NCBI GenBank assembly: GCA_947253655.1
Contig: CAMYAE010000005.1
Coordinates: 5,078-69,077 of the forward strand
DNA length: 64,000 nt
Reading direction: 5' to 3'
Source: an uncultured Bacteroidales bacterium
GTDB taxonomy: Bacteria > Bacteroidota > Bacteroidia > Bacteroidales > UBA932
Part shown: piece by piece, positions 1 to 51,297 of the stretch
Numbering within the stretch: the first letter of the stretch is position 1
Layout of the letters: each line of letters begins with the position of its first letter
Notes under the pieces: generated by a model
What the model was told of the DNA's origin: nothing
What the model saw: only the letters and a program-made list of their open reading frames with translations
Databases searched by the model: none
Position numbers and translations under genes: made by a program

Positions 1-2806
1 TAGTGAGCGATTTCTCCATATTTGAGGCATCAAAAAAAGGCTTCATGGATTCGTCAAATAGAATGTATGTCGTTTGAGGCTTATTCCTTGTTCTGCACAA
101 TCTGCCAATAGCCTGTTCCACTGTTGTTTGTGCCCATGCCGCTTTATCCTTGATGATTCCGGGATTCCGCTTCTCGCCAAACATGAAATTGTTGGACAAT
201 GCATAACAGAGCCACTGTGCGACATCTGATTTGGAAAGACATCCTCTTTCATACAGCATCATCAGTATTAGCATGGCATTGTAAAGGCTTTTTTCAAATG
301 TCGCCTCATTGCCGTCTTCATTCATCATTAGGTATGCCGTAGGAGACTGTAAATAGATGGCATCCCAGTCCTTTTTTAGCTTTTCTCCTTCATTTATCCA
401 GTTGTCGCCGCTTGTATATTCAAGACCTTCTGGTATATCATACTGCATGTTGGCTCCCGCCTTGAAGCTTCCATAGGCTGAAATCAGCATCAGTTTTGCA
501 TCTTTGTCCCGGCTTAGTTCTGACAGGATGTTGGATTCCACGTCTTCCCAGTCTTTGGAAATACGGATATGGGCATTGTCCCAACTTGATGGGATTTCGT
601 CTTCCAAAGGACAATCCATGTCCTTGAAAGTTCCGTCTATCAGGCAGCTAAGGACGTTAATCTGATCCTTGTCCTTATCTCCCGTACGGTTTTGGAAGAA
701 GATCATGCTATGGATGTCTTTGTGTGTGAAGAACCAATGATATGCTTCAATAAACTGGAAAAGCCTGTATAGTTGGAACATTATGTCATCAATATTCTTG
801 GCAGTCTTTTTCAGTCCTTTGTATGTGATACTGAACCAGTTGTCTACTAGTCCTTCTTCCAAAGCCTCATTAGAGAACAAATTCTTGTATTTGTCGGGCA
901 AAGCGATGGCATTCTCTCTCTTATCGTCATATTCATACTTCTCCAGAGGTACAACTTCAATATGGTGTGCTGAGGGATATGTTCGGGCGACAAGGCTGTC
1001 AAAAGTCTCACGATCTTCTTTGGAAAGCACATGAACTTTCTCTCCAAGTGTTTGCTTTAAGTACTTGATATCACAATTACTTACTACAGACCAGCACGAG
1101 GCTGTCGCTGAACATAGGACAACAGAGGTTCCGTCAGTGTTAAGGAGATCGATCAGTATCTTTTCCGGAGTTGTTGCAATCTCCCTGCATGATAGTCTGA
1201 CCCTGTGCTGGTTGTCGCGCTCGTCAATTTCTTCTTGGTAGAGTTGCACCCCTTGGGAATAGACCGAGAAATCGGGCAGTTTAATTTTGCTGCCGCCATC
1301 AGATACAAACAGATTCTTTCTGTTTGTCATGAATTCGTTAATCTGCTGTTCAAAATGATATTCCGAAGTGGTTTCAAAACGAGAGAATAAAGTATGTATC
1401 TCCCGTTCCAATGTAGGGTAGCCAAGATAATGATTTGTCGTGGAGGTATTGGCTGCGACTTCTTTTTCCTCGGCCTCGAATTGTTCCCGACTTTGCTTAA
1501 GGGATTCAGATATGACCTTTCTGAGCTGTGACTTTATAGACGTGGTGTTAGCGATGATTAGAGAGAGAAACCTGTCTAACGGAATTCCCCCTGAATATTC
1601 TTTCATCAGCAGATTGCCGTCCTTAGAGTGAACAAGGCTGAAATGACGGTCGTTATTCTTATGGCAGATATACGAGTTGGTATTGTCTCCCTTTGGGGAT
1701 ATATTCAATTTCAGAGCAGGGCCGGAAAAGAATACTCCTTTTCTGTATGTCTCCAATTCTTCTTTATTGCGTAAGAAGATATTCCTATAAGGAATAATAC
1801 TGCCTACGACTTTTTCCCAGTTTGTCTTTATGATTTCTTTGGCTTTGTTAAGGCTTCTCTCCAACAAATCACCGTAATAATCATTGGCGATTTGTTCCGG
1901 GTTATCAATCAAATCCTTATATTGCAGATAACCATTATACCCCTTTGCAAATCTCTTGCTACCTCCCGCATTTTCAATTGATTGGTCGATGATTGCCGTG
2001 CGCATGGCGACTGCTGCCTGGTCGGACTCGTCAAAGATAATAAGTGTCTTTTTGTTCTTCTCCGCAATATCTTGGAGATATATTCTCTCCGAAAGAATAG
2101 GGTCAATGCCGTACATCGCTTTATGAACGGTCATTAGGAGCACTTTTTTCCGTCTGAAATCAACCTGGGGATAAACCTTTACAAGAGACTGGAACCTGCT
2201 TAAAATTGTTTCGAGAGAGACTTTCTTCACTTGTCTTGTTTTTTCGAGGTGTCTTTTATAGGTGTCGAAGAATCCACGGACAGCCCTGCGAAGTCTGGCT
2301 TCACTCTCGTTGATTTGACTGAGGATGTAGTCGTTCTTGCCACTTTCGTCAAGAGTCTTGATTAATCCTGCCAATCCCTCATATATCTTCTTGACGTCAT
2401 TGTAACTGTATTGTATCTCATTGACCTTGTAATCCGCATCCTTCTGTTTCCCGACTTGGTAGAACATCTCTTCTAAAAGCCTTTCGAACAAACCGTTCTT
2501 GACTGCATGAGAGATAACTTCGGGATTGTTCTCTATTACAAGCTTGTCAGATGAGGATATAAGACTGCTTTCAGTGTTGACGAAACGGTCAATTTCCCGA
2601 TTCATGCTGTCCACCAGTTTATTCTGGACGCAGAGGATAACAATGCGGTCAAACTTTTCAGGGTAGTATTCGCAGGTCAGCTTGCCGATTGTATATGACT
2701 TTCCGCCACCTGTTGCAATATCGCAGATGTGTAGGCCAGGCATCGAATACCCCTTGAAGATATTTTCAACGTGCCTGCTTAGTTGCTCTTTATATGTAAT
2801 ATCCAT
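1..2806 (-). CDS. Large SF2 helicase-like / ResIII-like P-loop ATPase, N-terminal ~935 aa. The C-terminus lies beyond the window start. It is absent from the ORF track because there is no in-window stop.
   Basis: Manual minus-strand translation from ATG at 2806 stays open to position 1: MDITYKEQLSRHVENIFKGYSMPGLHICDIATGGGKSYTIGKL... Walker A-like A-T-G-G-G-K-S at about aa 30, DExD-like IIFDESDQ at about aa 200, and a SAT-like LCSATAS motif about 370 aa further downstream. The track shows no competing complete ORF in this frame. Confidence 0.6.
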   Translation of the reverse strand, partial: MDITYKEQLSRHVENIFKGYSMPGLHICDIATGGGKSYTIGKLTCEYYPEKFDRIVILCVQNKLVDSMNREIDRFVNTESSLISSSDKLVIENNPEVISHAVKNGLFERLLEEMFYQVGKQKDADYKVNEIQYSYNDVKKIYEGLAGLIKTLDESGKNDYILSQINESEARLRRAVRGFFDTYKRHLEKTRQVKKVSLETILSRFQSLVKVYPQVDFRRKKVLLMTVHKAMYGIDPILSERIYLQDIAEKNKKTLIIFDESDQAAVAMRTAIIDQSIENAGGSKRFAKGYNGYLQYKDLIDNPEQIANDYYGDLLERSLNKAKEIIKTNWEKVVGSIIPYRNIFLRNKEELETYRKGVFFSGPALKLNISPKGDNTNSYICHKNNDRHFSLVHSKDGNLLMKEYSGGIPLDRFLSLIIANTTSIKSQLRKVISESLKQSREQFEAEEKEVAANTSTTNHYLGYPTLEREIHTLFSRFETTSEYHFEQQINEFMTNRKNLFVSDGGSKIKLPDFSVYSQGVQLYQEEIDERDNQHRVRLSCREIATTPEKILIDLLNTDGTSVVLCSATASCWSVVSNCDIKYLKQTLGEKVHVLSKEDRETFDSLVARTYPSAHHIEVVPLEKYEYDDKRENAIALPDKYKNLFSNEALEEGLVDNWFSITYKGLKKTAKNIDDIMFQLYRLFQFIEAYHWFFTHKDIHSMIFFQNRTGDKDKDQINVLSCLIDGTFKDMDCPLEDEIPSSWDNAHIRISKDWEDVESNILSELSRDKDAKLMLISAYGSFKAGANMQYDIPEGLEYTSGDNWINEGEKLKKDWDAIYLQSPTAYLMMNEDGNEATFEKSLYNAMLILMMLYERGCLSKSDVAQWLCYALSNNFMFGEKRNPGIIKDKAAWAQTTVEQAIGRLCRTRNKPQTTYILFDESMKPFFDASNMEKSLT

Positions 2807-3183
2807 CTTTTATTAGATGTTGTTTGTGTATGAAGTTAAATTCGTCTTGTCTCAAATCATGGAACATGCCCGATATTTCTCAAATACTTCTATTATTAAT
2901 GAGTAAATATGACATAAAGTTAGCAATAAACCGTCATGAATGCGGACATAAACATTTAAAAGATATAAAATATTAATAGTTGTACTTATTTATTATTAAT
3001 AATCAAGGAAAAAACGTTAATTTTATACAATACGCAATATTTTAGTAATGAAGCAGACATTGACAGACTGAAAGTCGTTCTCGCTGAGCAGAGGCGAACG
3101 GACAGGAGGTGCACGCATATTGCACAGCCCGTTCTTTATTACCGGCTTCGGAGAGAAGATAGAACTGACAAAACAGGATTAGT

Positions 3184-4140
3184 ATGACTGTACCGGCAAA
3201 ATTCAAAGAGTATATCTGGCTTGTGAACACGATTCGCAAGGCTCGTAGGATTACATTCGCAGAAATCCAGGAAAAATGGTTGGACACAGACATGAGCGAA
3301 GGCGCAGAACTTGCCCGCTCTACCTTTGCCCGTCATAAGGATGCCATAGAGGACATCTTCGGCATCTATATAGACTGCGACCGTCAGAATGGCTATGAAT
3401 ACTATATAGGTAATGACTACGTTTTGAGAGAGGATAGTGTTCAGAACTGGATGTTGTCAACACTCTCCGTGAACAATGTTATCAGTGAATCTCTTTCTCT
3501 CCAAGACAGAATTTTGTTGCAAGAGGTTCCATACGAGGGCGAATATCTGAAACTGGTCATTGATGCCATGAAGAAGGGTGTCCGTGTTGCTGTTGATTAC
3601 AGAAAATATGGAACTGACAGGCCCAATCATCTTGACTTTGAGCCATATTGTATCAAAATGTTCAAGCAACGCTGGTATGTTCTCGGCCATTTCCATCGTG
3701 ATGCTACGGAGGAGAAGCCTGAGTCTGATTACTTTGGTTTGTTCTCTTTCGACCGTATCCAGAATATGACACTTACAGATATCAAGTTCCAAATAGATCC
3801 GGATTTTGATGCACAGTCATATTTCGACGAGTGTTATGGAGTTCTTGTCGGTGACGGAACGAAATCCGAGCGTATTGTCGTCCGTGCATATGGTTATGAA
3901 AGGTATTATATCAGGGATTTGCCTATCCACAAATCCCAACGTGAGATTGGCCAAGGTGAGAACTTCGCCGACTTTGAATTGTATATGCGTCCTACGGTTG
4001 ATTTGAGCGGCCATCTGTTAAGCCGTGGCAATCAGATTAAAGTCTTGTCACCGCAGTGGCTGGCTGATGAGCTCCGTGACATGCACTTGGAGGCCGCACT
4101 CATGTATGGTCGTGAAGAAAATGAGCAGGAACAAGAATAA
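3184..4140 (+). CDS. WYL-domain transcriptional regulator (wHTH-WYL-WCX, BrxR/CapW-like defence-island regulator)
   Basis: N-terminal wHTH (ITFAEIQEKW...), central WYL signature QRWYVLGHF, length 318 aa. Divergently transcribed from the large ATPase gene across a 377-bp AT-rich spacer. Confidence 0.7.
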   Translation: MTVPAKFKEYIWLVNTIRKARRITFAEIQEKWLDTDMSEGAELARSTFARHKDAIEDIFGIYIDCDRQNGYEYYIGNDYVLREDSVQNWMLSTLSVNNVISESLSLQDRILLQEVPYEGEYLKLVIDAMKKGVRVAVDYRKYGTDRPNHLDFEPYCIKMFKQRWYVLGHFHRDATEEKPESDYFGLFSFDRIQNMTLTDIKFQIDPDFDAQSYFDECYGVLVGDGTKSERIVVRAYGYERYYIRDLPIHKSQREIGQGENFADFELYMRPTVDLSGHLLSRGNQIKVLSPQWLADELRDMHLEAALMYGREENEQEQE

Positions 4141-4216
4141 TTTTTTGAGCCTGTCCCTCGTATTGAGACAATGTCAAGGTAATTTTACCTCCAAATAACA
4201 TTAACGTGCAGGTAAT

Positions 4217-4438
4217 ATGGACAAGAGTAAGGTAATACATTTAGAAAAAGCAAACACCCTGTCGAACTTCCTGACTAAGGAAGAGCGTGAGAACATTGTT
4301 TCTTTGAAAATTACCGGTTTCATGGGGGCTGATGATTTCTATGGTGTACTTGATGATATGTGTGACTCTTATGGCCAGTTTGATGAAAATGATGACTTGC
4401 CTGGAAATAAAAGTCTCGGAAATTCCACCGAATGTTAA
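4217..4438 (+). CDS. Small hypothetical ORF (73 aa) in gap between WYL regulator and SAH gene
   Basis: ORF track only; no recognisable motif; could be a gene fragment. Confidence 0.2.
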   Translation: MDKSKVIHLEKANTLSNFLTKEERENIVSLKITGFMGADDFYGVLDDMCDSYGQFDENDDLPGNKSLGNSTEC

Positions 4439-4610
4439 TGTGTTGCATTATTCAGCTCTTGATAGTCGGGATTTAGAACAGCTAATACTGCATTATGGCC
4501 TGGGGGAATTTGCTGATTATTAAGAGATGATGGTTATAAAAAGAATATGACAATGGGATGGGATGTAGTACAAATAGGATTAAGGCATAATTTGCCGGTC
4601 CACGATCCTT

Positions 4611-4835
4611 TTGCAACCGCAAAAGAAGTTGCAAGCAGATAACCTGAAAGAGTATGCCCGTTCTTTCCAATATCTTAAAGATACAAGTTGGGTCGAGGAG
4701 AATAAAAAAGAGGAATGGAAAAAGAATGCAAAACATATTAAGTTCCCCTCATATTTTCAAAATCAAATTGACCTGTCAAATGAAGATTTCGTAGAAGTTA
4801 TATTCGATGATTTCAGCGATATTGAAAAGTCATGA
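4611..4835 (+). CDS. Small hypothetical ORF (74 aa), K/E-rich
   Basis: ORF track only; no recognisable motif. Confidence 0.2.
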   Translation: MQPQKKLQADNLKEYARSFQYLKDTSWVEENKKEEWKKNAKHIKFPSYFQNQIDLSNEDFVEVIFDDFSDIEKS

Positions 4836-4966
4836 ACAGAGTATTGTGAAGATATTAAAAATAAATATCTTACCATCTACAAATAGAAAGGTTGGAAAGC
4901 GATAGAGGAATTATGTAAAAGAGATCGTTTGGCTTCCCTGTAAGGATAATATAAACTAAAATAAAT

Positions 4967-5494
4967 ATGAAAATAGGCAATGAGTATATCTCCTTGGAGA
5001 TAACATGCAAGCGGTCAACTGACTCTGATCCAATAAGTCAGGATACCGTAGAGAAATGTATCAAGATTGCTATGGCAGCCCATGAAGGACAGAGAGATAG
5101 AGATGGGAATGCCGTCATCCTTCATCCATTGTTAGTAGGCTCTATGGGGGAGACTGATGCAGAAAAGTGTGTCGGCTTTCTCCATGATGTGGTTGAAGAT
5201 ACTGACTGGACTTTTGACGACCTAAGAAACGAGGATGTCCCAGAAGAAGTTATCAAAGCATTAGAGTTATGTACGCACAAGGATGACCGGAATTATTATG
5301 ATTATGTGCAGAATATCATTGACTCTGGAAACATTACCGCTATTAATGTAAAACGAAATGATCTTTGCCACAACATTGCCAGAGGTAAGGCGTTCGGTTA
5401 CCCGGATTTGGTGGCAAAACATGAGAAAGCATTACAGATGATTGAAGGTTATTTGAAAAATAAAGATTCTTTTTACTGTTGTACCACGAAATGA
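4967..5494 (+). CDS. HD-domain (p)ppGpp hydrolase-like protein (small alarmone hydrolase / Mesh1-like, RelA-SpoT HD family)
   Basis: AMAAHEGQRDRDGNAVILHPLLVG ... FLHDVVEDT matches the RelA/SpoT hydrolase HD signature. 175 aa with no synthetase domain. Confidence 0.7.
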   Translation: MKIGNEYISLEITCKRSTDSDPISQDTVEKCIKIAMAAHEGQRDRDGNAVILHPLLVGSMGETDAEKCVGFLHDVVEDTDWTFDDLRNEDVPEEVIKALELCTHKDDRNYYDYVQNIIDSGNITAINVKRNDLCHNIARGKAFGYPDLVAKHEKALQMIEGYLKNKDSFYCCTTK

Positions 5495-5524
5495 GACAAC
5501 ATGTCTGTATCTTTCCATAAGTAA

Positions 5525-5914
5525 TTGAAGTCAAACCCTCAAAAAGGATTAGTTATGAAGGCAAAGAAGTTATTTTTCAAAGAGTGTCATCTCGCCGGTC
5601 GACAGTATCATGATGTGGATGAGGTTTGGGAAGATTTGCATGTGGGAACCTGTTTGGAATTACAGCGTGACTTTGACAACAGATATGACATGAATGCCGT
5701 TGCAGTAGTTTACAACACGATTGACGAAGATACAGGCAAGTCGGAGGAATACCTGCTTGGCTATATCCCCTGTGATGAGAATGAGACAATCGCTCAACTT
5801 CTTGAAATGGGGTGGAAGAATATCTTTGAGTGTCGCATTAGCAAAATAAACCCTGACGCACACTATGAGAATCAGATCCGTCTGACCATACGAATTGTCA
5901 GGAATGATAAGTAG
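5525..5914 (+). CDS. HIRAN-domain protein (stand-alone, 129 aa)
   Basis: LELQRDFDNRYDMNAVAVVYN....LGYIPCDENETIAQLLEMG fits the HIRAN core (L.REP.N.YD.NAI.V ... GYlP). Starts 30 bp after the SAH gene. Confidence 0.65.
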   Translation: MKSNPQKGLVMKAKKLFFKECHLAGRQYHDVDEVWEDLHVGTCLELQRDFDNRYDMNAVAVVYNTIDEDTGKSEEYLLGYIPCDENETIAQLLEMGWKNIFECRISKINPDAHYENQIRLTIRIVRNDK

Positions 5915-6314
5915 TATAATAGGACTATGAGGCGTAACAGTGCAAGCTGGGAGTACAGTGAACTGAAATGACAGCTACTAAGGATAAGTAGAAATACTTT
6001 CGCCATGAATGTCAGTTAAATGCATATTATAACGGTCATTAAAGTTAAGTCGTGGAGTCATATCCTTTTCCTTTTGGCGAGCAGAATAGTTCTTTGATAT
6101 GAGTGTATGAGTAAAAATCTGCCTCTATATTACGAATATCATATTGCTTGTAGAGAGGTGTATATAGCACATACAAACAAAATTATGACATTTAGTCTTT
6201 GGAGTTTCTGCTTAAAAGGGTTATGTGCAGAGTTAATTATTCAATGATGTACATTTTCTATATACAACACATCATTAAATAAATAAAAAGTCTTATCTTT
6301 GCATATTATATGAT

Positions 6315-6644
6315 ATGTTGACTATGGCGAAGAATACAATGGCTACTAAGTTGCCTCGGAAATTGGAGCAGAAGATGCAGATTGTAGGCGAGCAGATTAA
6401 GTTGGCTCGCTTGCGTAGAAATTTGAGTGTGGCTCAGGTGGCAGAACGGGCTACCTGTTCGCCGCTTACTGTGTCTCGTATTGAAAAAGGTATTCCTACT
6501 GTCGCGATAGGAATCTATTTGCGTGTATTGTATGCTTTGCAGCTCGAAGATGATATTTTATTGCTTGCCAAAGAAGATGAAATGGGTAGGGCGTTACAGG
6601 ATTTGAGTTTGAAAACAAGAGAACGAGCATCAAAAAAAGAATAG
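6315..6644 (+). CDS. hipB: XRE-family HTH regulator, HipB-like antitoxin component
   Basis: HTH_3 pattern IKLARLRRNLSVAQVAERATCSPLTVSRIEKG. Immediately upstream of HipA-homologous ORFs, 3-bp spacing. Confidence 0.7.
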   Translation: MLTMAKNTMATKLPRKLEQKMQIVGEQIKLARLRRNLSVAQVAERATCSPLTVSRIEKGIPTVAIGIYLRVLYALQLEDDILLLAKEDEMGRALQDLSLKTRERASKKE

Positions 6645-6647
6645 GCT

Positions 6648-6932
6648 ATGAGAGGGTTGTATGTATATGCCGATTTCGATTGGCTCAAAGAAGTGGAACT
6701 CATAGGCGAATTGGGCTATGAGTCTCTTCGAGGTGCAGACAGCTATAGCTTTACGTTCAATAATGAATGGTTAGGACAACACGGTGATCTGTTTTTGAGT
6801 GATGATTTGAACAATTATCCGGGACAGCAATACACACAGCCTGACAAGGACATATTCGGATGCTTTTCCGATGCCTTGCCGGATCGTTGGGGACGTACTT
6901 TGTTGTTAAGACGAGAACAAATCGCGGCATAG
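6648..6932 (+). CDS. hipS: HipS-like protein (HipA N-terminal subdomain as separate 94-aa ORF)
   Basis: HipA N-terminal couple_hipA-like sequence (...FSDALPDRWGRTLLLRRE). Ends at TAG, in the same frame as the downstream kinase ORF. Confidence 0.6.
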   Translation: MRGLYVYADFDWLKEVELIGELGYESLRGADSYSFTFNNEWLGQHGDLFLSDDLNNYPGQQYTQPDKDIFGCFSDALPDRWGRTLLLRREQIAA

Positions 6933-6956
6933 GAAGAAAATAGGCCGGTACGGAGA

Positions 6957-7931
6957 TTGTCGTCTTTCGATTTCTTAACCGGTATCGATGATTTCTTTCG
7001 GATGGGCGGGTTCCGTTTCAAGGAAGACCCTGATGACAAATTTATCAATGTAAGTGAATCACTGAAAATCCCCCCTCTGACAGATATCCGGGAGTTGATT
7101 GTTGCCAGTGCAGAGATTGAGAAAAGCGAAGAAAACAATATGCTCCCTGACAGGAAATGGATTGCACAGCTTGTGCAACCCGGAACATCATTGGGCGGTG
7201 CAAGACCTAAAGCAAATGTGATAGATGTAGATAAGACTCTTTATGTAGCCAAGTTCCCGTCTCGTCAGGATGATTATGATGTAGGACTTTGGGAGCATTT
7301 CAGCCACGTACTATCTATAAAAGCAGGAATAAATGCAGCTAAAACCAAAGTGCTGGCGGCAGGAGAAAAATATCATACACTGCTATCGCAACGCTTCGAC
7401 AGAACTCAAGAAGGAAAACTTATTCATTTTGCATCTGCTATGACCCTATTGGGGTTGAGTGATGGAGATAATGCAGCAAGTGGGCATGGCTATTTGGACA
7501 TTGTTGATTTTATAATTCGGAACTGCACAGATGTCGAGAAAAATCTGCAGGAACTCTACCGCCGTGTAGCCTTCAATATCTGTATAGGCAATAGTGACGA
7601 CCATTTCCGGAATCATGGTTTTCTTTTAAAGGCAAAGGGATGGACATTGTCTCCTGCATACGACATGAATCCCACTCTTAATGAGTATCAAAGCCTGCTA
7701 ATCTCTTCTACTTCCAACAAGGCAGATTTAAGTATCTTATTGGATGCTTGTGAGGAGTATATGCTCAACAGGAATAAGGCAGAGAAAATTGTATCAGAGG
7801 TGGTTGAAGCAGTGAAAGGATGGCGAGAATTGGCAACGCGATTAGGAATCTCCAAGAGAGAAATGGATATGTTTGCCGGAGTGTTGGATAGACGATATGA
7901 TAGTATGTTTAATTTCTCAATTCAAATTTGA
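6957..7931 (+). CDS. hipT: HipT-like Ser/Thr kinase (HipA C-terminal kinase core)
   Basis: HipA_C motifs: GTSLGGARPKANV, VAKFPSRQDDYDVGLWEHFSHVLSIKAG, NSDDHFRNHGFLL, LSPAYDMNP. Confidence 0.7.
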   Translation: MSSFDFLTGIDDFFRMGGFRFKEDPDDKFINVSESLKIPPLTDIRELIVASAEIEKSEENNMLPDRKWIAQLVQPGTSLGGARPKANVIDVDKTLYVAKFPSRQDDYDVGLWEHFSHVLSIKAGINAAKTKVLAAGEKYHTLLSQRFDRTQEGKLIHFASAMTLLGLSDGDNAASGHGYLDIVDFIIRNCTDVEKNLQELYRRVAFNICIGNSDDHFRNHGFLLKAKGWTLSPAYDMNPTLNEYQSLLISSTSNKADLSILLDACEEYMLNRNKAEKIVSEVVEAVKGWRELATRLGISKREMDMFAGVLDRRYDSMFNFSIQI

Positions 7932-8118
7932 CAAGGAGGAAATAACTATGAGTAGGGGATGTATTGATAGGAGCATATACGCAATGCGTGAGATTGCTGA
8001 TACTATTTAGCATGATATTGCGGGGGTTTTACAACCAAAGCCGGAGAAAGTTCAAGAGGACTATTGGACTATTTACGAGAAAGATTGCTTTGGCTCATAT
8101 CATTGTTATAAGGACTAC

Positions 8119-8337
8119 ATGATTTTTGTGAACTATGAAGATGCAGAATCTCTTCTTCTAAGAGATAAAACCATTGTCAAGGCAGAACAAAAATTCACAG
8201 ATCGACGATTCTTTGATGATGGGGTGATTTTCCAATCGAAAAAGCGATATAGGTCCGACACTCCTTATGGTGAACAAATGTCAGTATTACACGCAATCCA
8301 TCATTGTCATTATGACCATTATCCCTATGAAGCTTAA
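8119..8337 (+). CDS. Hypothetical small ORF. The same frame continues for 47 more codons after a TAA (8338-8480).
   Basis: ORF track only. His/Tyr-rich C-terminus. Possible remnant. Confidence 0.15.
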   Translation: MIFVNYEDAESLLLRDKTIVKAEQKFTDRRFFDDGVIFQSKKRYRSDTPYGEQMSVLHAIHHCHYDHYPYEA

Positions 8338-8555
8338 GTATTGGAACAGTCAGAAGTGACTATAGATGCAAAGAAGGAGGCATATCGGCAAATTCGTATT
8401 GCAGAGATATACGCTGAGCGAGTTGATTGGACGATGAGTGGCGATGATAGCGAAGATTGCTTCCGTGAACGAATCAAGTAAGATAGATATTCCGGCGGAT
8501 AGTCGGCCACCGATTCCGGTGATACTCGGCCACCTGAGTTAGATTTGCAAAGATA

Positions 8556-8960
8556 TCAATATTTCTTTCTCATGCTATCTCCCTTAAGCTCGAAGCGTAG
8601 TGATTTGTGTACGATTCTGTCCAGACAGGCCTCTGCAAGCATCTCGCTGCTGAAGACTCCGTACCAGTCGGCGACTGCCAGCTGGCTGGACAGGATCAGC
8701 GATTTTCTGTGATACCTGTCATCGATGATCTGCTCGAAGTCGTTCTGCTGCTGCCTTTCGAGACACTTCATCCCGAAGTCATCTATTATGAGCAGGTCCG
8801 GGGATATTGACCGAATACTTGTTCTCCTGCAACTCCTGGCACTGCTCAAGGCTCTCGTTTTCAAAATTGAAACGGCCTTTCAATGATCCCTCTTTGAGGA
8901 ACTTGGATATGTTGTCAAGGGCAATGTGTACAAGTATTACACCGATTATTGAGGCAAGCA
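8556..8960 (-). pseudogene. istB: IS21-family IstB helper ATPase, C-terminal fragment (frameshifted; N-terminal part including Walker A missing)
   Basis: ...PDLLIIDDFGMKCLERQQQNDFEQIIDDRYHRKSLILSSQL...DRIVHKSLRFELKGDSMRKK matches the IstB C-terminus. Upstream part readable only in a second frame. Truncated where the IS256-like copy begins. Confidence 0.6.
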
Positions 8961-8982
8961 TATAAAGCCAGATGTTCAATCG

Positions 8983-9604
8983 GATACTGTTTCAAAAAGT
9001 GTGTCTGAGAAGAGCTAAAAAAGAAAGTCTACGGATTTCTTTGTGTTTGTAAACACAAAACAAGAACTCTAAAAAAACGTAGACTTATGTATTTCACAAA
9101 GGAACAACTTTCCGAGGTATTATGCAAGCATGCGGAAAGAGAAAATGGTATCCAGGACCTGCTGGAGATAATGATTGAGAGTATGCTGGTCGCTGAAAGG
9201 TCCGAATACCTGCGAGAGGATGCATTGCCTGGTAATAAGAGAAACGGGTACAGAATGGGTCACACCTACGGTCAGGGACGGGCTCTTATATTCCGTATAC
9301 CCCGATATAGGTATGGCAACTTTCATCCTCAGATACTGGCTGTCCTGCACAATCAGGAGGACGAATGCGAGTGCTTGGCCGGCACCCTGTATGGCAAGGG
9401 CCTGACTCAGGAGCAGGTTGGCGAGGTGTTCAACGACATCTATGGGGAACACTACGGCAAGGCAAGCATTTTGAGGATGCCGGATTACCTTCGGAAAGAT
9501 GTCCAGGAGTGGCTGGGCCGCAGTTTGGACGCTTACTCTCCGAATCCTGTTCATAGATTGTGTGCACATCAAGACACACCGCAAACAATAATCTATGAAA
9601 GGGA
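8983..9604 (+). mobile_element. IS256-family (mutator-type) element, ~0.6 kb internal-deletion derivative, copy A
   Basis: Left terminus GATACTGTTTCAAAAAGTGTGTCTGAG. Encodes a transposase N-terminal 150 aa (GYRMGHTYGQGRALIFRIPRYRYGNFHPQ...) which then breaks off. The right end ...AAGACACACCGCAAACAATAATC resembles the inverse of the left IR. Near-identical inverted copy at 18457-19058. Confidence 0.65.
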
Positions 9605-9632
9605 ATTTTTCTTTTATATGTCTGTTGAGTGA
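9087..9632 (+). pseudogene. IS256-family transposase, N-terminal fragment only
   Basis: Transposase_mut-like N-terminal region. Similarity to copy B stops after ...GRSLDAYSP. Confidence 0.6.
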
Positions 9633-9869
9633 AAGCATAAATTCGCTTGGTTCATACAAAAAATCATATTTCAAATCTTCATTTAATTTGTATTTCCCGT
9701 ATGAAACTCTGATGATTTTGTTCTCTGCAAGCATCCTATTCAAAAGCACAACAAGAGAACCTTCTGATATGTTTTTCATACCAGAACGCACCGCATTCAG
9801 CAGGTCTTTTCTTGTGAATAGCCCGTTCTGTTTCCGAGCAATATCTATTATTTGATTTACAGTTGTCAT
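9605..9869 (-). pseudogene. AbiEi-like (type IV TA antitoxin) N-terminal wHTH remnant, truncated by IS insertion
   Basis: MTTVNQIIDIARKQNGLFTRKDLLNAVRSG...IIRVSYGKYKL matches the AbiEi_4 N-terminal domain pattern. After ~88 aa the reading frame runs antisense into the IS256-like element. The 249-aa track ORF 9120..9869 is this chimera. Confidence 0.5.
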
Positions 9870-9989
9870 TGTTGTTCTTGAATTATACTTTATCCTGTTT
9901 TACAATTCCTACTACCTTGCTATTTTACCTATTTATATTATCACAATATTGTGAACTTATTCAGCAGTACGTATGCTTACCTTGATTCG

Positions 9990-10640
9990 CCCTGGGAAGC
10001 AACCTTCGAGCAGCTTCCTGCGTATGTCACAGCAGATCTCCCAGTCCCGCGAGGCGGAAACCAATCCCATCAGGACTGCTTCGGTATGGGAGTGTGCCAC
10101 CTTGATAGAAAGATATTTACGATGAATCGCCGTGTAGCAGTATTCTGGGATACCGGCCGATAGCCTTTAGCCTTAGGGAAGATGAGTGGCAGCACCACGG
10201 GTAAGATTTCCGGAGCAAACCTCTTCACCTGTCTGAACTACTGGATTGTCGCCTGCGATGGCTCTCCGGAGACCAACCCGCCCACTCTCGTGTGTCGAGA
10301 ACCCTTCCTCTGCCACCATTGTGTGCCATTGCAACGTCTTAACCTTCAAGCTTGACCAAGCTATCGCTGATATAAGCGGTATCTTCCTAGGCATCGAGGC
10401 TTCCGAAAGTCAGTCCAATGGTGTGAGCCGTGCCCACAGCAAGTCCGCACAGATCAAGATGGTCGAAGTTTCCGAAGCCACCGCAATCGTCCTCTCCTTG
10501 CCGACAACATTGCCAAAAAAGGCATGCCCAGCACTACGCTGCTCCGAAGATTTTCTTCCGCTACTACTACGTCAACTACTCCACCTGTGAGAAGTCAGGC
10601 ATTATGCTGGCGGAGACCACCTGGACCGCTGGTGAATAGA
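9990..10640 (+). pseudogene. Degraded paralogue (copy A) of the secreted-protein gene at 15540-16300; multiple frameshifts
   Basis: ~70% nucleotide identity with the reverse complement of 15540-16300. Conserved peptide segments (ATFEQLP / IEASE / KIFFRYYYVN...EKSG) lie in three different frames. Confidence 0.45.
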
Positions 10641-10767: not shown

Positions 10768-11634
10768 TTACCTATTTTTCGGAAGCTTTGCAGAAGCCTT
10801 CTCAATCTTCTTCTGTTCTGAGGCGACTCGACGTTCTAATTTTTTAATATCCTCGGCGGGCGGTAATTCTTCCGGACGAATACCTCGTTGGCCTAACATA
10901 TCACGCACACTTTTATTATTTTGCATGTGTTCACGAGTAATGGTTGGCTCACCATATAGATTCTTCCCCTTGACATTATAATTAGTCATCTCTGTTGCCA
11001 GGTTTTTGGCTGCTATGGTCAGGGTAGGGAGAAAGTCAGCCAAAGGCCGATTATCTTTGACACCGAGACGTTTTTTCATATCCTCGGTAGTATGTCCACC
11101 AAATAGAACTGCATCACCCTTCGAACGAATTCTGCCAAATCCCTTATCATCGACTCCTCGCTCATAGATATGTTGAGATAGTTGCTTCTCAGACGCACGA
11201 AGTCTATCCCGAGATTCAAGGCGTGCAATGTAGTTAAGGCGTTCTTCAATTAATTCAGCTTTACGTGTCTGAACAGCAAAATAACTTTGTGCAAAGGCTA
11301 TCTCTTCTTTCTTTGGATCGCCATTCTGAGCAATCAAGTAACATGCAAATCTTGTTAGCATGTAATCCTTGATGTCACGTTCCGCTCCTTTGGCAAGGGT
11401 TATCATTTTCGTGACTTCACGAAAATGATCGTCAACATTGATTCCCTGAGTATTACATGACTCAACAGCTCTATTGATGGCTGTCTGGAAATTCTCCCAT
11501 CTGGCATACCCGAGAACCTTTTGAAGATCTCTTGCAAACCAAACTTCGACTTGTTCATTTCCGTTGTCGCTTTCAATGTATGTGGCAATACTATCAAAAG
11601 CAGATTTGTATTGAATGATAATCTTTTTATCCAT
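10768..11634 (-). CDS. dinD: DNA-damage-inducible protein D-like (Bro-N / DinD family)
   Basis: WFARDLQKVLGYARWENFQTAINRAVESCNTQGINVDDHFREVTKMI...YLIAQNGDPKKEEIAFAQSYFAVQTR matches the DinD N-terminal pattern (RDLQ..LGY..W..F..AI.RA..SC). Confidence 0.7.
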   Translation of the reverse strand: MDKKIIIQYKSAFDSIATYIESDNGNEQVEVWFARDLQKVLGYARWENFQTAINRAVESCNTQGINVDDHFREVTKMITLAKGAERDIKDYMLTRFACYLIAQNGDPKKEEIAFAQSYFAVQTRKAELIEERLNYIARLESRDRLRASEKQLSQHIYERGVDDKGFGRIRSKGDAVLFGGHTTEDMKKRLGVKDNRPLADFLPTLTIAAKNLATEMTNYNVKGKNLYGEPTITREHMQNNKSVRDMLGQRGIRPEELPPAEDIKKLERRVASEQKKIEKASAKLPKNR

Positions 11635-12818: not shown

Positions 12819-13925
12819 ATGAACATTGATGTAAATAAACTCTTTGCTTCTAGCGATCTTGAATGCAAGGTCGTTGCCGGATGGACTATCGTTAATAAGC
12901 TTGCTGCACCTGACAAAAGTAAAAATGAAACTGGAGGGAATTTCTCAACATGTTACAAAGTTGAGAAGGATGGCGTGGTTGCCTTTATGAAGGTCCTTGA
13001 TTATGCCAAGATTATGATGCTATATGGTCAACTCACACCCCAGATAATGCAGCGTGCATCATCTGAATTTAATTATGAGAAGGCCCTTTCTGAATACTGT
13101 GTAAATAGACGTGTTTCTAAAGTCGTTCATTATATTGAGTCCGGGGATGTTCTGCTCGATGGTTATATAGTCAATGGTAGCGTCTCATTTATTATTTATG
13201 AGATGGCAGATGGTGATATTCGTAAGGTCCTTGATTTGTCCTCTAAAGCCGAATTGGCGGCAAGGATTAATTCTCTGTCAACAAAGTTGAATTCGCTCCA
13301 CGATGTGTCTGTTGGGTTAAGTCAACTTCATATGAATGATATTTCACATCAAGATATTAAGCCATCCAATATCCTCTCGATTAAAGGCGAATCCAAAATC
13401 GGAGATCTGGGTAGATCAATATGTTTTGATTCCAGTGTAAGTTGCCCTTATTCTGCTCTCTTTAATGGAGATAAAAATTATGCCGCCCCAGAATGCTATT
13501 ATCCGGACTTTGTAAGTAGTATAGAAAGCCTCTATCAGATTGATAATTATATGCTTGGCGGATTAATTGCTTACTATATAACTGGACTTACTTTCAATGC
13601 GTTGATGAACAATCATCTTCCTGACGTGCTTCAATTTTCTAAATTTCGGAGTATTCAGACACAAACATATTGCAATGTTTTGCCAGATATGATGAATGCA
13701 TACCAGAAAGCGCTTAAAGACTTCGAGAACGAAATTCCAATAGATGAGGTTAAAGTCGGGCTAGTGTCCCTTGTCGCATATCTGTGTAATCCAGACCCAA
13801 ACCGACGTGGTCACCCAAAGAATGTATTGGAGACATCCCGCACGCCAAATTATGATTTGCAGAGGACAATACAGGAACTTGATGTTTTGCAGAAGAAAGC
13901 TGAGTTGGCTTTAATTAAGAAATAG
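12819..13925 (+). CDS. Eukaryotic-like Ser/Thr protein kinase (stand-alone kinase domain, 368 aa)
   Basis: Complete ePK motif set: VAFMKV (VAxK), HQDIKPSNIL (catalytic loop), IGDLG (DFG-like), YAAPE, DNYMLGG. No TM segments. Low-GC gene. Confidence 0.8.
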   Translation: MNIDVNKLFASSDLECKVVAGWTIVNKLAAPDKSKNETGGNFSTCYKVEKDGVVAFMKVLDYAKIMMLYGQLTPQIMQRASSEFNYEKALSEYCVNRRVSKVVHYIESGDVLLDGYIVNGSVSFIIYEMADGDIRKVLDLSSKAELAARINSLSTKLNSLHDVSVGLSQLHMNDISHQDIKPSNILSIKGESKIGDLGRSICFDSSVSCPYSALFNGDKNYAAPECYYPDFVSSIESLYQIDNYMLGGLIAYYITGLTFNALMNNHLPDVLQFSKFRSIQTQTYCNVLPDMMNAYQKALKDFENEIPIDEVKVGLVSLVAYLCNPDPNRRGHPKNVLETSRTPNYDLQRTIQELDVLQKKAELALIKK

Positions 13926-13926
13926 T

Positions 13927-15453
13927 ATGGCATCATTTAAGGAGGATGAGAAAAGAAACGTAGTCCCTAACTGGAGAGATTACAATAAGACCGCTAAACT
14001 CGGTGAGTTTGGCAGTTCTCCTATTGCTACCCAACCTCTTGAACTGTTCCCTATAGACGAATATGTTGTAGCCTGGCAGAATAATAAGAGTGTATCTTTT
14101 GCTGGCGATTTACTGTCAGCCGCCATTTTGAATGGACATCAATCAAACCCATATGCAATAGAGGCCGCTAAATTTGTGATCGCTCACAAAGATGAGGCTA
14201 CGAATGTTCTTGTAAGGACTGCACAATCGGTGATTGCGACACCGGAAGAAAAGGCTGCTGCTGCTCAATTGACAGTCCCTCAAAAAATAGCTCAGATCCA
14301 AAATCAAGAAGAAGCTGTTCGAAATGAAATAAAGTTGCTTAAACAAAGCCGAGACTACTGCTGCTATAATCCGATTGCTTTTTGTGAAATGGCCAGGTGC
14401 TATGTTACACTGGGACAATTTGACAAGGCAAAAGAGGCTATGGAAGTGGCTCTCCATCTTGCACCAAATCATAGATACATTTGCCGTTCTGCCGCTCGTC
14501 TCTATCTTCACCTTATGGATGAGGACCGTGCAAGATATATTATTGCCAAGAATCCAGCATTACTCCACGATCCATGGCTTCTTGCATCAGAAATCGCTGT
14601 TAATACATTAATGGGCAGAACTTCTCGCCACATCAAAAAAGGTTCAGAGCTGATTGCTTCTCAGAATTACTCTCCTTTTAGCATTAGTGAACTTTCAAGC
14701 GCTATTGGTTCTGTTGAAATGATTAATGGCAACAAAAAGAAGTGTCGTTCATATTTCAAAACTGCTTTACAAAAGCCAAATGACAATAGCCTTGCGCAGG
14801 CAAGGTTCCTTCTTTCTAAAAACGCCGACTTGACTTTTGAATTCGGAGATGATATTGCTATTCCTAACGCTTTTGAAGCTGATGCGATTACCGCATATAT
14901 CTCAGACGATTACGCCAAATCATTAATTACAGCAGTTGATTGGATTGAAGATATGCCTTTTACAAGAAGGCCTGTCCAGTTCGCAGCAAATATTGCATAT
15001 TCATTCTTAAAGGACTATGGTACTGCCATCGATATTCTTGACCTGGGGCTGAAGTCTAATCCCAATAATCCTATGCTCTTGAATAATAAGGCGTATGCGT
15101 GTGCCTTATCTGGTAAAACACTTGAAGCGGAGCGAGCTATTCAGGAAGCCAAAAAGTTGCAGTTACCCCCGGATGCACAGGTCTGTCTGATTGCTACAGA
15201 AGGATTAACGGAATATAGAAAAGGCAATATCGATGAAGGGCGTAGATTATATACTGAAGCAATACAGTTAGCAAAGTCGTCTTTCCCTGATCCTCGCATT
15301 GCGAATACTGCTCTTTTGAATTTTACAAGAGAAGAAGCTCGGGCTGATGAAGCTTTTGATAAATCAGTTCTTGATGTCATAGACAAGATCCCCAATGATT
15401 GCAAGGAAACTGTTCAGTTAAAAATGGACATTAAAGCCGAAATTAAAGATTAG
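13927..15453 (+). CDS. TPR-like helical repeat protein (508 aa), translationally coupled to the kinase
   Basis: ATG lies 1 nt after the kinase TAG (AAATAGTATGGCA). Repeated amphipathic helix pairs (…LGQFDKAKEAMEVALHLAPNHRY…, …LGLKSNPNNPMLLNNKAYA…). Confidence 0.7.
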   Translation: MASFKEDEKRNVVPNWRDYNKTAKLGEFGSSPIATQPLELFPIDEYVVAWQNNKSVSFAGDLLSAAILNGHQSNPYAIEAAKFVIAHKDEATNVLVRTAQSVIATPEEKAAAAQLTVPQKIAQIQNQEEAVRNEIKLLKQSRDYCCYNPIAFCEMARCYVTLGQFDKAKEAMEVALHLAPNHRYICRSAARLYLHLMDEDRARYIIAKNPALLHDPWLLASEIAVNTLMGRTSRHIKKGSELIASQNYSPFSISELSSAIGSVEMINGNKKKCRSYFKTALQKPNDNSLAQARFLLSKNADLTFEFGDDIAIPNAFEADAITAYISDDYAKSLITAVDWIEDMPFTRRPVQFAANIAYSFLKDYGTAIDILDLGLKSNPNNPMLLNNKAYACALSGKTLEAERAIQEAKKLQLPPDAQVCLIATEGLTEYRKGNIDEGRRLYTEAIQLAKSSFPDPRIANTALLNFTREEARADEAFDKSVLDVIDKIPNDCKETVQLKMDIKAEIKD

Positions 15454-49071: not shown

Positions 49072-51297
49072 TTATAAGTCTCTTCTCATTACGCTTTGGA
49101 TGCCGTCAATCGACTTCAGCCGGTTTATAATCGTCTCAAGTACAGCCTTGTTGTGCACGAACAGATCAATTTCTCCTTCTACAATATCCTCCTCAGCCCC
49201 AAGATTAAGTCTCCTCATGTTGACACCCATAACCAAGGATATTTCCCTTGTTATGTCATTCAGGAGTCCGATCCTATCTACACCTTTAATCGAAATCCTT
49301 ACAAGGAATGCCTGCTCTTCGGTGTCGTCCCATTTCGGCATTACTATCCAATCTCCGTGCTTGGAGGCAAAGCTTTCTGCCACGCCGCAAGACTTCTTAT
49401 GCACGGTGACCGTCCCGTCCGGAGACAGGAAACCAACGACTGCATCTCCGGCAATAGGATTACAGCAAGACGCCAACACATATTTATGGCTGTCAAAAGG
49501 AGAGTTTATCACAAAATTCGTCCTGTCATTGTTCTCTTTATCTGCCGGAACTGCCTGTCCCTCATTACTTAGATGATACCTCTCGGCAATTTCCATAATG
49601 ACTTCAAAGCTGATGAGGCCGAGGGCATAACGGAAATAAAGCTCCTCTATGTTTGTCAGGCCTAAATTGGCTATAACAAAGCGTTTTATCTTCTCATTTA
49701 TGCCTGTTCCGACTGATTTGAGTTTCTCGGTCAGAGACTTCTTTCCTGCAGCCACGAGTGTCTTTTTTTCAGGCCTGAAAAAGTCTATCACCATGTTTTT
49801 GGCGTGCCTTGTCTGTAGAAATTCCAACCATTCCCGTTTCGGGTGCTCCTTTTCGGCAGTAATTATTTCCACCTGATCTCCCGTCCGCAACACATAGGAC
49901 AGAGGAACTAATTTCATATTTACCTTTGCGGCGATAGCCTTGTTCCCGATTTCGGTGTGTATCTGATATGCGAAATCCAGGACTGTCGCGCCTTTCTGAA
50001 TTGACCTTTGCTCTCCCTTAGGGGTGAATACCACAATATCTCCCGCAACAAGGTCGTTATGTATAATATCAAGAAGTTCAAGGGCATTGACATCGGGACT
50101 GACAAGTATTTCCTTGACTTTTGACAGCCATTTGTCCATCTGACTGTCATTCTCTCCGACATATCCGTCTTTCTTGTAGGCCCAATGGGCGGCAATGCCT
50201 TTTTCGGCAATATCATCCATTCTTCTGGAGCGGATCTGCACTTCTATCCAAATGCCGGACACACTCATAAGAGTGCAGTGAAGTGCCTCATATCCATTGC
50301 TTTTCGGATGCTTCACCCAGTCCCTGACCCTGTCCGGCTTGTATCTGTATATCCCTGTAATTATTGAAAAAACGTGATAGCTCTGGTCCCTCTCGGTCTC
50401 TTTCAATGATGGGTCGGTGTTGAATACAATCCGCACGGCATACAGGTCATATACCTGTTCGAATGTAATATTCTTCGAGGTCATCTTGTGCCATATCGAG
50501 TACGGAGTCTTTACCCGCTTCTTGATTTCGAAATCAAAGCCGGCATTTGTCAATGCTTTTTCAATAGGCTTTATGAAACTGTCTATTTCTTTCTCTTTGT
50601 CAAGTATATTCCTGTTGATCTTGGCATTAATGTCATTATAGGCATCCGGCTCCTTATACCTCAGCCATATATTCTCCATTTCCGATTTGACTTCATACAG
50701 ACCTAACCTGTGGGCAAGCGGAATGAAGATGAACATTGTCTCGCTCAAAATCTTGTCCCTCTTGTATTCCGGCATGAACTCTATTGTCCTGCAATTATGC
50801 AGCCTGTCGGCCAATTTAATCAGCACGACTCTTGCATCATCGTTCAATGTCAGCAGGATACGCTTGAAATTTTCAGCCTGGGAGCTCTCCGTGTATTCCG
50901 AGTGATGATGCTTCCTGTCTTGGGTGTCGAGAACGTTCTTGATTTTGGTAAGACCGTCCACAAGCGAGGCAATCTTGTCTCCGAAGAGCCTCCTGATATC
51001 ATCAACGGTATAGTTGGTGTCTTCGACCACATCGTGCAGCAAGGCGGCTGTTATGGATTTGTATCCCAAGCCGATATTCTCTACGACAATCTTGGCTACG
51101 GCAATAGGGTGTATGATATATGGCTCACCCGATCTCCTGCGAATATTCTTGTGAGCCTCATTGGCGAACTCGAATGCTTTTTGTACGACTGCAAACTCCT
51201 CAGCGTCGGCACATCTTTTCCTGGCTATCACCTCCAGGTCCGCATACTCTCTGGCTATAACTTCGTAATCCCTCTTGGTAAATTCTGAAAAGCTCAT
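49072..51297 (-). CDS. rel: Bifunctional (p)ppGpp synthetase/hydrolase (RelA/SpoT family)
   Basis: HD hydrolase (HPIAVAKIV...LLHDVVEDT), synthetase core, TGS and ACT regions, 741 aa. Confidence 0.9.
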   Translation of the reverse strand: MSFSEFTKRDYEVIAREYADLEVIARKRCADAEEFAVVQKAFEFANEAHKNIRRRSGEPYIIHPIAVAKIVVENIGLGYKSITAALLHDVVEDTNYTVDDIRRLFGDKIASLVDGLTKIKNVLDTQDRKHHHSEYTESSQAENFKRILLTLNDDARVVLIKLADRLHNCRTIEFMPEYKRDKILSETMFIFIPLAHRLGLYEVKSEMENIWLRYKEPDAYNDINAKINRNILDKEKEIDSFIKPIEKALTNAGFDFEIKKRVKTPYSIWHKMTSKNITFEQVYDLYAVRIVFNTDPSLKETERDQSYHVFSIITGIYRYKPDRVRDWVKHPKSNGYEALHCTLMSVSGIWIEVQIRSRRMDDIAEKGIAAHWAYKKDGYVGENDSQMDKWLSKVKEILVSPDVNALELLDIIHNDLVAGDIVVFTPKGEQRSIQKGATVLDFAYQIHTEIGNKAIAAKVNMKLVPLSYVLRTGDQVEIITAEKEHPKREWLEFLQTRHAKNMVIDFFRPEKKTLVAAGKKSLTEKLKSVGTGINEKIKRFVIANLGLTNIEELYFRYALGLISFEVIMEIAERYHLSNEGQAVPADKENNDRTNFVINSPFDSHKYVLASCCNPIAGDAVVGFLSPDGTVTVHKKSCGVAESFASKHGDWIVMPKWDDTEEQAFLVRISIKGVDRIGLLNDITREISLVMGVNMRRLNLGAEEDIVEGEIDLFVHNKAVLETIINRLKSIDGIQSVMRRDL

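Follow-up and report, generated by a model that had tools for sequence, protein, structure and literature searches.

A probable DdmDE-type locus and its apparently recent WYL neighbour in an uncultured Bacteroidales bacterium

Few known defence systems act specifically against plasmids, and DdmDE is one of these. In V. cholerae (VC1771-VC1770) and L. casei it comprises two genes, the first encoding DdmD, a helicase-nuclease, and the second the Argonaute DdmE, and it is found in a defence-island or mobile-element context. DdmD joins a superfamily 2 (SF2) DinG-like helicase, which contains an Insertion and an Arch domain, to a C-terminal PD-(D/E)xK nuclease; it forms an auto-inhibited dimer, translocates 5'-3' and cuts single-stranded DNA. 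DdmE has the long-C prokaryotic Argonaute (pAgo) fold (N, L1, L2, MID and PIWI), with a catalytically inactive PIWI domain that lacks the DEDX tetrad, a C-APAZ region and a PIWI insertion domain. In the L. casei protein (LcDdmD) helicase domain HD1 is split by the Insertion domain (91-220) and the Arch domain (280-503), with motif II lying within HD1 segment 221-279 and HD1 resuming at 504-563 (10.1101/2024.10.09.617351). For the V. cholerae protein (VcDdmD) the phenotype of K55A, which alters the essential Walker A lysine, has been described, and plasmid elimination requires nuclease residues E1082/D1085 and D1100/K1102 (10.1101/2024.05.10.593530). The canonical V. cholerae ddmDE genes are controlled by an upstream WYL repressor (10.1101/2025.11.13.688357). 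Here we analyse a locus at the left edge of a 64,000-nucleotide stretch of DNA from an uncultured Bacteroidales bacterium (contig CAMYAE010000005.1, positions 5,078 to 69,077), referred to below as the window, in which the 5' part of a helicase gene stands divergently beside a WYL gene. Because fold, sequence, conserved residues and gene pairing all lead to DdmD and DdmE, we conclude that this locus is very probably a DdmDE-type system, a divergent Bacteroidales version of the known anti-plasmid system made up of a DdmD helicase-nuclease and a DdmE Argonaute, and that the WYL gene is a recent neighbour.

The helicase gene at the left edge of the window

The minus-strand frame beginning at ATG 2806 was followed to base 1 and contained 935 codons and zero stops. 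A preliminary description of this DNA, made from the letters alone, had already recognized this frame as part of an SF2 ATPase gene, and had noted that it was missing from the list of open reading frames (ORFs) because its stop lies beyond the window. Both statements proved correct; the frame at 1-2806 was omitted solely because it runs off the window, and the gene is real and looks intact. The Walker A, motif II and LCSATAS motifs named in that description were also located (Table 1), and the Walker A lysine, K36, was invariant across 30 family sequences. Motif II and the SAT motif had been placed about 370 aa apart; the actual count is 307 aa. Relatives' loci are labelled L001 and so on, P0001 being the best database homolog of the helicase and P0369 a distant member of the partner family. 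Since database homologs of the window helicase are uniformly ~1,250-1,260 aa, including P0001 (full length, 1,258 aa, 96% identical to the window fragment), ~323 C-terminal residues of the helicase fall outside the window.

When the window fragment was scanned against PADLOC, DdmD was the single significant family (6e-17, aa 468-933), and full-length P0001 matched the same family at 3e-27. Sequence searches of the PDB recovered V. cholerae DdmD both with the window fragment (2.9e-15) and with P0001 (7.6e-24 over residues 465-1147). Pfam returned only a generic ResIII N-terminus for the fragment (6e-07, aa 28-138), and NCBIfam searches yielded nothing useful for the helicase or its partner protein. 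An AlphaFold2 model of the 935 residues had a predicted local distance difference test (pLDDT) score of 78. In a Foldseek search of the PDB with this model the first 20 matches were exclusively DdmD (E 7e-27 to 5e-21; template modelling (TM) score 0.46-0.53), with DinG, CasDinG and XPD ranking after DdmD at 1e-7 or weaker.

The catalytic positions of the nuclease were assessed in full-length relatives, as that region is outside the window for this genome. The nuclease region of P0001 aligned to VcDdmD 1006-1072, where E1133, invariant in the family, pairs with catalytic E1059. Two further invariant motifs of the family, E1160-x-x-D1163 and D1178-x-K1180, have the same spacing as VcDdmD E1082/D1085 and D1100/K1102. 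The Walker A lysine and, judged from the full-length relatives, all five nuclease catalytic positions of VcDdmD are therefore kept in the Bacteroidales clade.

The preliminary description had regarded an insertion within the first RecA lobe as unusual. An Insertion and Arch pair is typical of DdmD and of DinG/XPD-like helicases, and the positions of Walker A, motif II and the SAT motif in the window protein fit the LcDdmD domain map. We conclude that the segment between motif II and the SAT motif corresponds to the normal Insertion and Arch domains of DdmD, a hallmark of the family and not an anomaly. From sequence comparison and the structural model, the window ORF appears to encode the N-terminal 935 residues of a DdmD-type SF2 DinG/XPD-like helicase-nuclease of ~1,258 aa.

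The partner gene and the Bacteroidales clade

A scan of one genome per species gave 40 ddmD-like loci, 35 of which had enough downstream DNA for the next gene to be assessed. In 33 of these 35 the pair was intact, a gene of ~662 aa directly following the helicase gene with its start overlapping the helicase stop. Among close homologs this arrangement was present in every context retrieved, and the overlap in relatives is 4 nt. The claim of the preliminary description that the helicase gene is probably the first of a defence operon extending leftwards is borne out by a conserved partner gene in the relatives; for the genome studied here, the 3' end of the ddmD-like gene, with the nuclease domain, and a ddmE-like gene would be expected beyond the left edge.

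The AlphaFold2 model of the partner was of moderate confidence (pLDDT 67.5, predicted TM score 0.70), with low-confidence segments at 178-255 and 514-548 that might represent the C-APAZ region and the PIWI insertion domain. DdmE structures took each of the top 6 places among its PDB matches (E from 1e-21 to 9e-13, TM reaching 0.63), the match to L. casei DdmE (LcDdmE) being 9.7e-22 (TM 0.63) and that to V. cholerae DdmE (VcDdmE) 6e-19, compared with 3.5e-8 or weaker for other Argonautes. An exhaustive profile search indicated that the partner family is small, with 133 representatives at 50% identity. Ten distant members were scanned with PADLOC; nine were without a match, and P0369 matched DdmE at 4.9e-11. 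P0369 also matched LcDdmE at 1.2e-23, and aligned with the partner profile in hhalign with 94% probability (E 1.5e-7, 569 columns). A C-terminal P-F-P-x-K-x-L-x-E-Y motif is common to the partner profile, P0369 and LcDdmE. Judged by spacing, the invariant partner residues Y367, Q382, E406, K410, K635 and E639 appear to correspond to VcDdmE Y363, Q376, E401, K405, K674 and E678, which form the guide-5'-phosphate and Mg2+ pocket (MID). From this evidence we infer that the partner in the relatives is a DdmE-type (long-C) Argonaute, and that the same would hold for the genome of the window.

The clade shares with the V. cholerae and L. casei systems the two-gene order, the domain plan of DdmD, the predicted long-C pAgo fold of the partner with apparent counterparts of the six pocket residues, and the defence-island or mobile-element context. 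It differs from them in that its DdmD-like protein is ~65 aa longer and its partner ~30-50 aa shorter, and in having no conserved WYL regulator.

Several points weigh against assignment to DdmDE. Identity to solved DdmD and DdmE is only ~14-16%, although the L. casei and V. cholerae systems are reported to be about as far from each other (14%). The N-terminal 465 residues of the helicase align to DdmD structurally but not by sequence. Unlike V. cholerae and L. casei DdmE, the partner had no match in PADLOC (DdmE model PDLC04131), Pfam or PDB sequence searches, whether one sequence or a 27-sequence profile was the query, so that its assignment to DdmE passes through a moderate-confidence model and a transitive bridge. 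Lastly, the nuclease domain and the Argonaute gene are outside the window, and their presence and integrity are deduced from 96%-identical relatives.

Two other explanations of the helicase gene were weighed against a DdmDE-type system. The gene might encode a helicase of another kind, such as Res of a Type III restriction-modification (R-M) system, DrmA/D of DISARM, DruE of Druantia or a housekeeping DinG/XPD-type repair helicase, as could be argued from the Pfam ResIII match, a weak PADLOC typeIV_DinG match of P0001 (8e-4) and the presence of DinG and XPD among the secondary fold matches. However, the ResIII match is limited to the generic Walker-A region, and no other PADLOC family was significant for the window fragment. 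DinG/XPD (Rad3) and type IV CasDinG do resemble the window protein in the fold of the helicase core, whose HD1 carries an Arch-type insertion, but the DdmD structures (1e-26) outrank DinG by ~20 orders of magnitude in E value, and DinG and XPD lack the C-terminal PD-(D/E)xK nuclease and the Argonaute partner of the DdmD family. No Mod methyltransferase, DrmB/C/MI or DruA-D gene is conserved alongside, the sole conserved neighbour being the Argonaute-like gene, and the loci lie in defence islands or conjugative-element contexts rather than housekeeping ones. We consider this explanation highly improbable. The Type III R-M, DISARM and Druantia identities suggested in the preliminary description were rejected in favour of DdmDE, since there was no PADLOC match to those families and their cognate partner genes were not conserved, while PADLOC, PDB, Foldseek and partner evidence agreed on DdmDE.

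Alternatively, the system could be decaying, the locus being a non-functional remnant in which the ddmE-like gene, or whatever lies past the window edge, is disrupted. The right flank is indeed degraded (an XRE pseudogene, the truncated 61 aa at 4217-4399, hipA in two parts and a piece of IstB), and some relatives are broken, in ddmD (L039, L045), in the partner (L002, L003, L023) or by loss of the partner from a solo ddmD (L013, L027). All 935 codons in the window are nonetheless intact, identity to intact full-length relatives is 96% with every invariant motif kept, and the 177-bp block upstream of the gene is conserved. An outcome of this kind therefore appears very unlikely, and a DdmDE-type system that is intact as far as the window extends remains the preferred reading.

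The proposed mechanism, including both the biochemical activity and the target, is taken over from V. cholerae and L. casei DdmDE. The Argonaute-like partner would carry short 5'-phosphorylated DNA guides and bind complementary plasmid or mobile-element DNA. It would then recruit the DdmD-like enzyme and relieve its dimeric auto-inhibition. The enzyme would load on the displaced strand and translocate 5'-3' using ATP, and its PD-(D/E)xK nuclease would nick or degrade the DNA, such that invading plasmids would be eliminated.

The 40 loci come nearly all from gut or rumen Bacteroidales (Prevotella, Xylanibacter, Segatella, Paludibacteraceae, Bacteroidaceae and Lepagella), with one from a Spirochaetales metagenome-assembled genome. 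The clade appears to be common in this setting, the count being 40 species-level genomes and, for clusters at 90% identity, at least 243 of the helicase and 400 of the partner. A search of the literature on DdmDE in Bacteroidota found no description of this clade. The state of the pair varied among the relatives. The ddmD-like gene is fragmented in L039 (9962-13788) and L045 (10001-14431), the ddmE-like gene is split in L002/L003 (4072-6060) and L023 (5736-7732) while being intact in the near-identical L001, and L013 and L027 carry a ddmD-like gene without a partner. In L004-L009 an Azaca-like set (ZacA/DUF6361, PLD-like protein and DEAD helicase), followed by ADP-ribosylglycohydrolase and NUDIX genes, lies beside the pair (e.g. 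L005:15777-21824), and the other flank is occupied by an operon of XRE, SNF2 and Eco57I-type giant genes (L004:1-9811). In GCA_016648615.1 the ddmDE-like pair is situated between BREX-like genes and conjugative-transposon tra genes.

The spacer, the WYL gene and regulation

The ddmD-like and WYL genes are separated by 377 bp (2807-3183). This spacer had been described as AT-rich, which is correct in length and for 2807-3040 (25% GC) but not for 3041-3183 (47% GC), which is above the window mean of 44%. The first 177 bp next to the ddmD-like gene (2807-2983) form a block that is retained whatever adjoins it to the right. The copy in L011 and L001 is identical and their homology to the window stops at 2983, whereas homology to L004-L009 and L060 (85%) continues through the block. 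As the block is kept regardless of the right-hand neighbour, it is likely to be the promoter region of the ddmD-like gene. Relaxed Bacteroides -7-like boxes occur on its minus strand at 2916-2923 and 2959-2966, for which a promoter role may be proposed. The strict Bacteroides -7 motif, TAnnTTTG, is absent from the spacer. A scan of 2700-5000 for sigma-70 promoters and terminators gave no enrichment over shuffled sequences, the model being ill-suited to Bacteroidales promoters, and an Rfam scan of 1-10,000 gave only sub-threshold chance matches.

Comparison with relatives suggested how the WYL gene came to stand beside the ddmD-like gene. L011 and L001-L003, which are 96.7% identical, match the window only to 2983, then diverge, and have no WYL gene. 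L004-L009 and L060 (~85%) match the window to 3110, into a gene for an 86-aa XRE/HTH_3 regulator that is intact and divergent from ddmD in these loci. In the window, a remnant of the XRE gene is left at 3041-3130: ATG 3048 is followed by a 1-nt frameshift, the helix-turn-helix (HTH) segment (~45-51 nt) is missing and the 3' end is truncated; its alignment pairs ...DIDRLKVVLAEQRRTDRRCTHIAQP of the window with ...DINRLKVVLAEQKRTNKW[LAEQLGKDPATVSKW]CTNTAQP of L004. The sequence that follows travels with the WYL gene and is the 3' tail of a gene for a 697-aa NERD/UvrD-like protein (Table 1). The part of the spacer with normal GC content did not originate as spacer but consists of a decayed XRE gene and the tail of another gene.

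In L060, ddmE and ddmD are followed divergently by the XRE gene, a 503-aa SNF2/DrmD-like fragment, the WYL gene, a 919-aa PD-(D/E)XK gene and a 1,382-aa UvrD-like gene. Window 3-3110 matches L060 1880-4990, and window 3125-4196 matches L060 6943-8015. From these coordinates a deletion of ~1.95 kb in the window, with its junction at ~3111-3124 relative to the L060 layout, brought the WYL gene beside ddmD. The L060 arrangement is the probable precursor, and the sequence comparison indicates that the deletion both destroyed the XRE gene and created the WYL-ddmD adjacency. Relative to the 96.7%-identical L011 (9084-9823), the window carries a ~1.55-kb replacement at 2984-4535, comprising the XRE remnant, the WYL gene and the fragment at 4217; homology resumes at 4536-4864 and again at 7687-7895. 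This pattern points to cassette-like exchange at a hotspot directly upstream of the ddmD promoter block. The XRE gene may have been the ancestral regulator of ddmDE; it is present in only a minority of loci, and those of L004 and L060 stand first in a SNF2/Eco57I-type operon of their own.

The WYL gene itself was correctly identified in the preliminary description as divergent from the ATPase gene, and its product is probably a ligand-sensing transcription factor. A Pfam search of residues 1-110 detected no HTH family, and matches to solved WYL proteins were marginal (E 0.08 or weaker). With BrxR, CapW and WYL-DE repressors it shares the WYL and WCX domains, a fitting size and a defence-island setting. 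It differs from them in the lack of an HTH match and in its marginal similarity to solved WYL proteins, and also in that its orthologs have neither a fixed target system nor a conserved upstream operator.

We surveyed 80 metagenomic loci with WYL orthologs at 65-95% identity. A ddmD-like gene was present in one of the 80 (L060), with the intact XRE gene and the 503-aa gene in between. In ~60 of the 80, another module lay 60-80 bp downstream on the same strand, consisting of a PD-(D/E)XK and UvrD-like pair or an ADP-ribosylglycohydrolase-fusion/UvrD-like gene, often then followed by ZacA. The regions upstream of the orthologs were unrelated, no conserved operator being found there, and the upstream gene varied and often ended 1-40 nt before the WYL gene. 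Conversely, among the 35 genome loci with a ddmD-like gene, an adjacent WYL gene was found once, in L041, where a paralogous WYL+WCX gene lies 112 bp upstream on the same strand. With an iterated WYL profile, 4 of the 35 were seen to have a WYL-like gene no more than 10 kb upstream, those of L015, L032 and L035 being 3-5 kb upstream.

The preliminary description had reasoned that WYL regulators typically control the neighbouring defence operon, and had taken the palindrome as a plausible operator. On this model the protein would be a dedicated repressor of the divergent operon that binds the palindrome in the spacer and derepresses on a signal such as single-stranded DNA (ssDNA). The immediate divergent adjacency of the two genes and the upstream WYL genes of L041, L015, L032 and L035 favour this explanation, and the V. 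cholerae precedent together with the leader-position gene of L041 makes WYL control of DdmDE-type systems a recurrent theme. The adjacency was, however, produced by the deletion, and is found in neither survey beyond the single cases given above; most WYL orthologs lead other modules on their own strand. L011 and L001 lack the WYL gene despite the 96.7%-identical ddmD and the identical upstream block. The palindrome, ATTATTAATAAT, does exist and is perfect over 12 bp, but at 2992-3003 rather than ~2987-2998, and its proposed role as operator was not supported. The probability of its occurring by chance in a spacer of this composition is ~0.14-0.21, and 22 perfect 12-bp palindromes were observed in the window against ~16 expected. 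Neither L004 (TTCATGGATAAT) nor L011 conserves it, and it sits just past the L011 homology breakpoint, a site of recombination; judged from its sequence context, it is probably fortuitous. Comparative evidence does not favour a dedicated repressor of this kind, and regulation of the ddmDE-like operon by this WYL protein is unlikely. The WYL gene is better described as a recent neighbour of the ddmD-like gene, drawn from a family with other usual partners and itself without a conserved partner. Standing behind a pseudogene remnant, it may lack a promoter of its own.

Table 1. Coordinates of features at the left end of the window
Feature	Position	Strand	Basis or remark
ddmD-like helicase-nuclease gene, 5' part (codons 1-935 of ~1,258)	1..2806	-	open frame, homology and AlphaFold2 model
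Motif III-like LCSATAS, aa 564-570	1097..1117	-	S566, A567, T568 invariant; aligns to VcDdmD ISATAR
~300-aa segment, motif II to SAT motif	1118..2017	-	Arch-domain equivalent
Motif II IIFDESDQ (DExD-type), aa 256-263	2018..2041	-	D259, E260, S261, D262, Q263 invariant
Walker A / motif I ATGGGKS, aa 31-37	2696..2716	-	K36, counterpart of VcDdmD K55
Conserved upstream block of ddmD-like gene, probable promoter region	2807..2983		common to loci with three different right-hand neighbours
Perfect 12-bp palindrome	2992..3003		probably fortuitous
Remnant (pseudogene) of XRE/HTH_3 (86-aa) regulator	3041..3130	+	alignment with L004 HTH_3 gene; L060 copy intact
3' tail of 697-aa NERD/UvrD-like gene	3125..3183	+	tail abuts WYL gene in L051 and L057
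WYL + WCX domain protein, 318 aa, probable ligand-sensing transcription factor	3184..4140	+	Pfam WYL 6e-10, WCX 1e-6; PADLOC WYL 3e-25
Decayed cargo gene, N-terminal 61-aa fragment of ~298-aa protein	4217..4399	+	tblastn, residues 1-61 of L112 298-aa protein, 64% identity

The right flank and biological implications

To the right of the WYL gene lies a defence and toxin-antitoxin island with signs of decay. In other loci the ~298-aa protein of which a fragment is left at 4217 is encoded downstream of WYL orthologs. At 4967-5494 and 5555-5914 (+) are small HD-domain and HIRAN-domain genes, which recur by WYL orthologs in varying order (L015:5495-6136, L089:7856-8368, L113:8037-8402, L121:322-741), which suggests an accessory set whose members are only loosely linked; another HD homolog, with 35% identity, is found at 50992-51228 (-). 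A HipB-like XRE gene at 6315-6644 (+) is followed by hipA in two parts, a Couple_hipA N-terminal ORF (6648-6932) and a HipA_C ORF (6957-7931); this could be a toxin gene broken by a frameshift or a HipA that is split by nature. Further along are the C-terminal fragment of an IS21-family IstB ATPase at 8556-8864 (-), covering profile positions 146-233 of 238 and representing an insertion sequence remnant, a weak AbiEi-like antitoxin at 9120-9869 (-), a Bro-N domain protein at 10768-11634 (-), and a Ser/Thr protein kinase (368 aa) immediately before a TPR protein (508 aa) at 12819-15453 (+).

The survey of WYL orthologs also brought out a three-gene module consisting of the WYL gene, a ~919-aa PD-(D/E)XK gene (PDDEXK_1) and a gene for a 1,000-1,380-aa UvrD/GajB-like helicase, AddAB-like in appearance (e.g. 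L060:7001-14951). It was present in L057, L059, L060, L080, L092, L099, L101, L106 and L126. PADLOC gave no match for the 919-aa protein. The trio may be a WYL-led defence module missing from current catalogues, and it may be what this WYL family is usually partnered with.

For WYL genes in general, the history of this locus means that adjacency to a defence gene, the criterion by which large surveys call a WYL gene defence-associated, can be an artefact of recent rearrangement. For DdmDE, standard annotation with current PADLOC models would miss the system, as the DdmE model fails on the partner; the partner alignment could be used as a new detection profile. A more far-reaching proposal is that the clade is a functionally distinct DdmDE subtype, perhaps a widespread but so far unrecognised barrier to plasmids and integrative and conjugative elements in gut and rumen Prevotella and other Bacteroidales, and that in this genome the deletion was also a regulator swap, through which an ssDNA-sensing WYL factor under the former XRE promoter could co-regulate the divergent ddmDE-like promoter. 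Taken jointly, these suppositions are unlikely to hold. As a DdmDE-type system, the clade could help to explain the poor transformability of Prevotella and its relatives, and could affect how plasmids and resistance genes move between bacteria of the gut.

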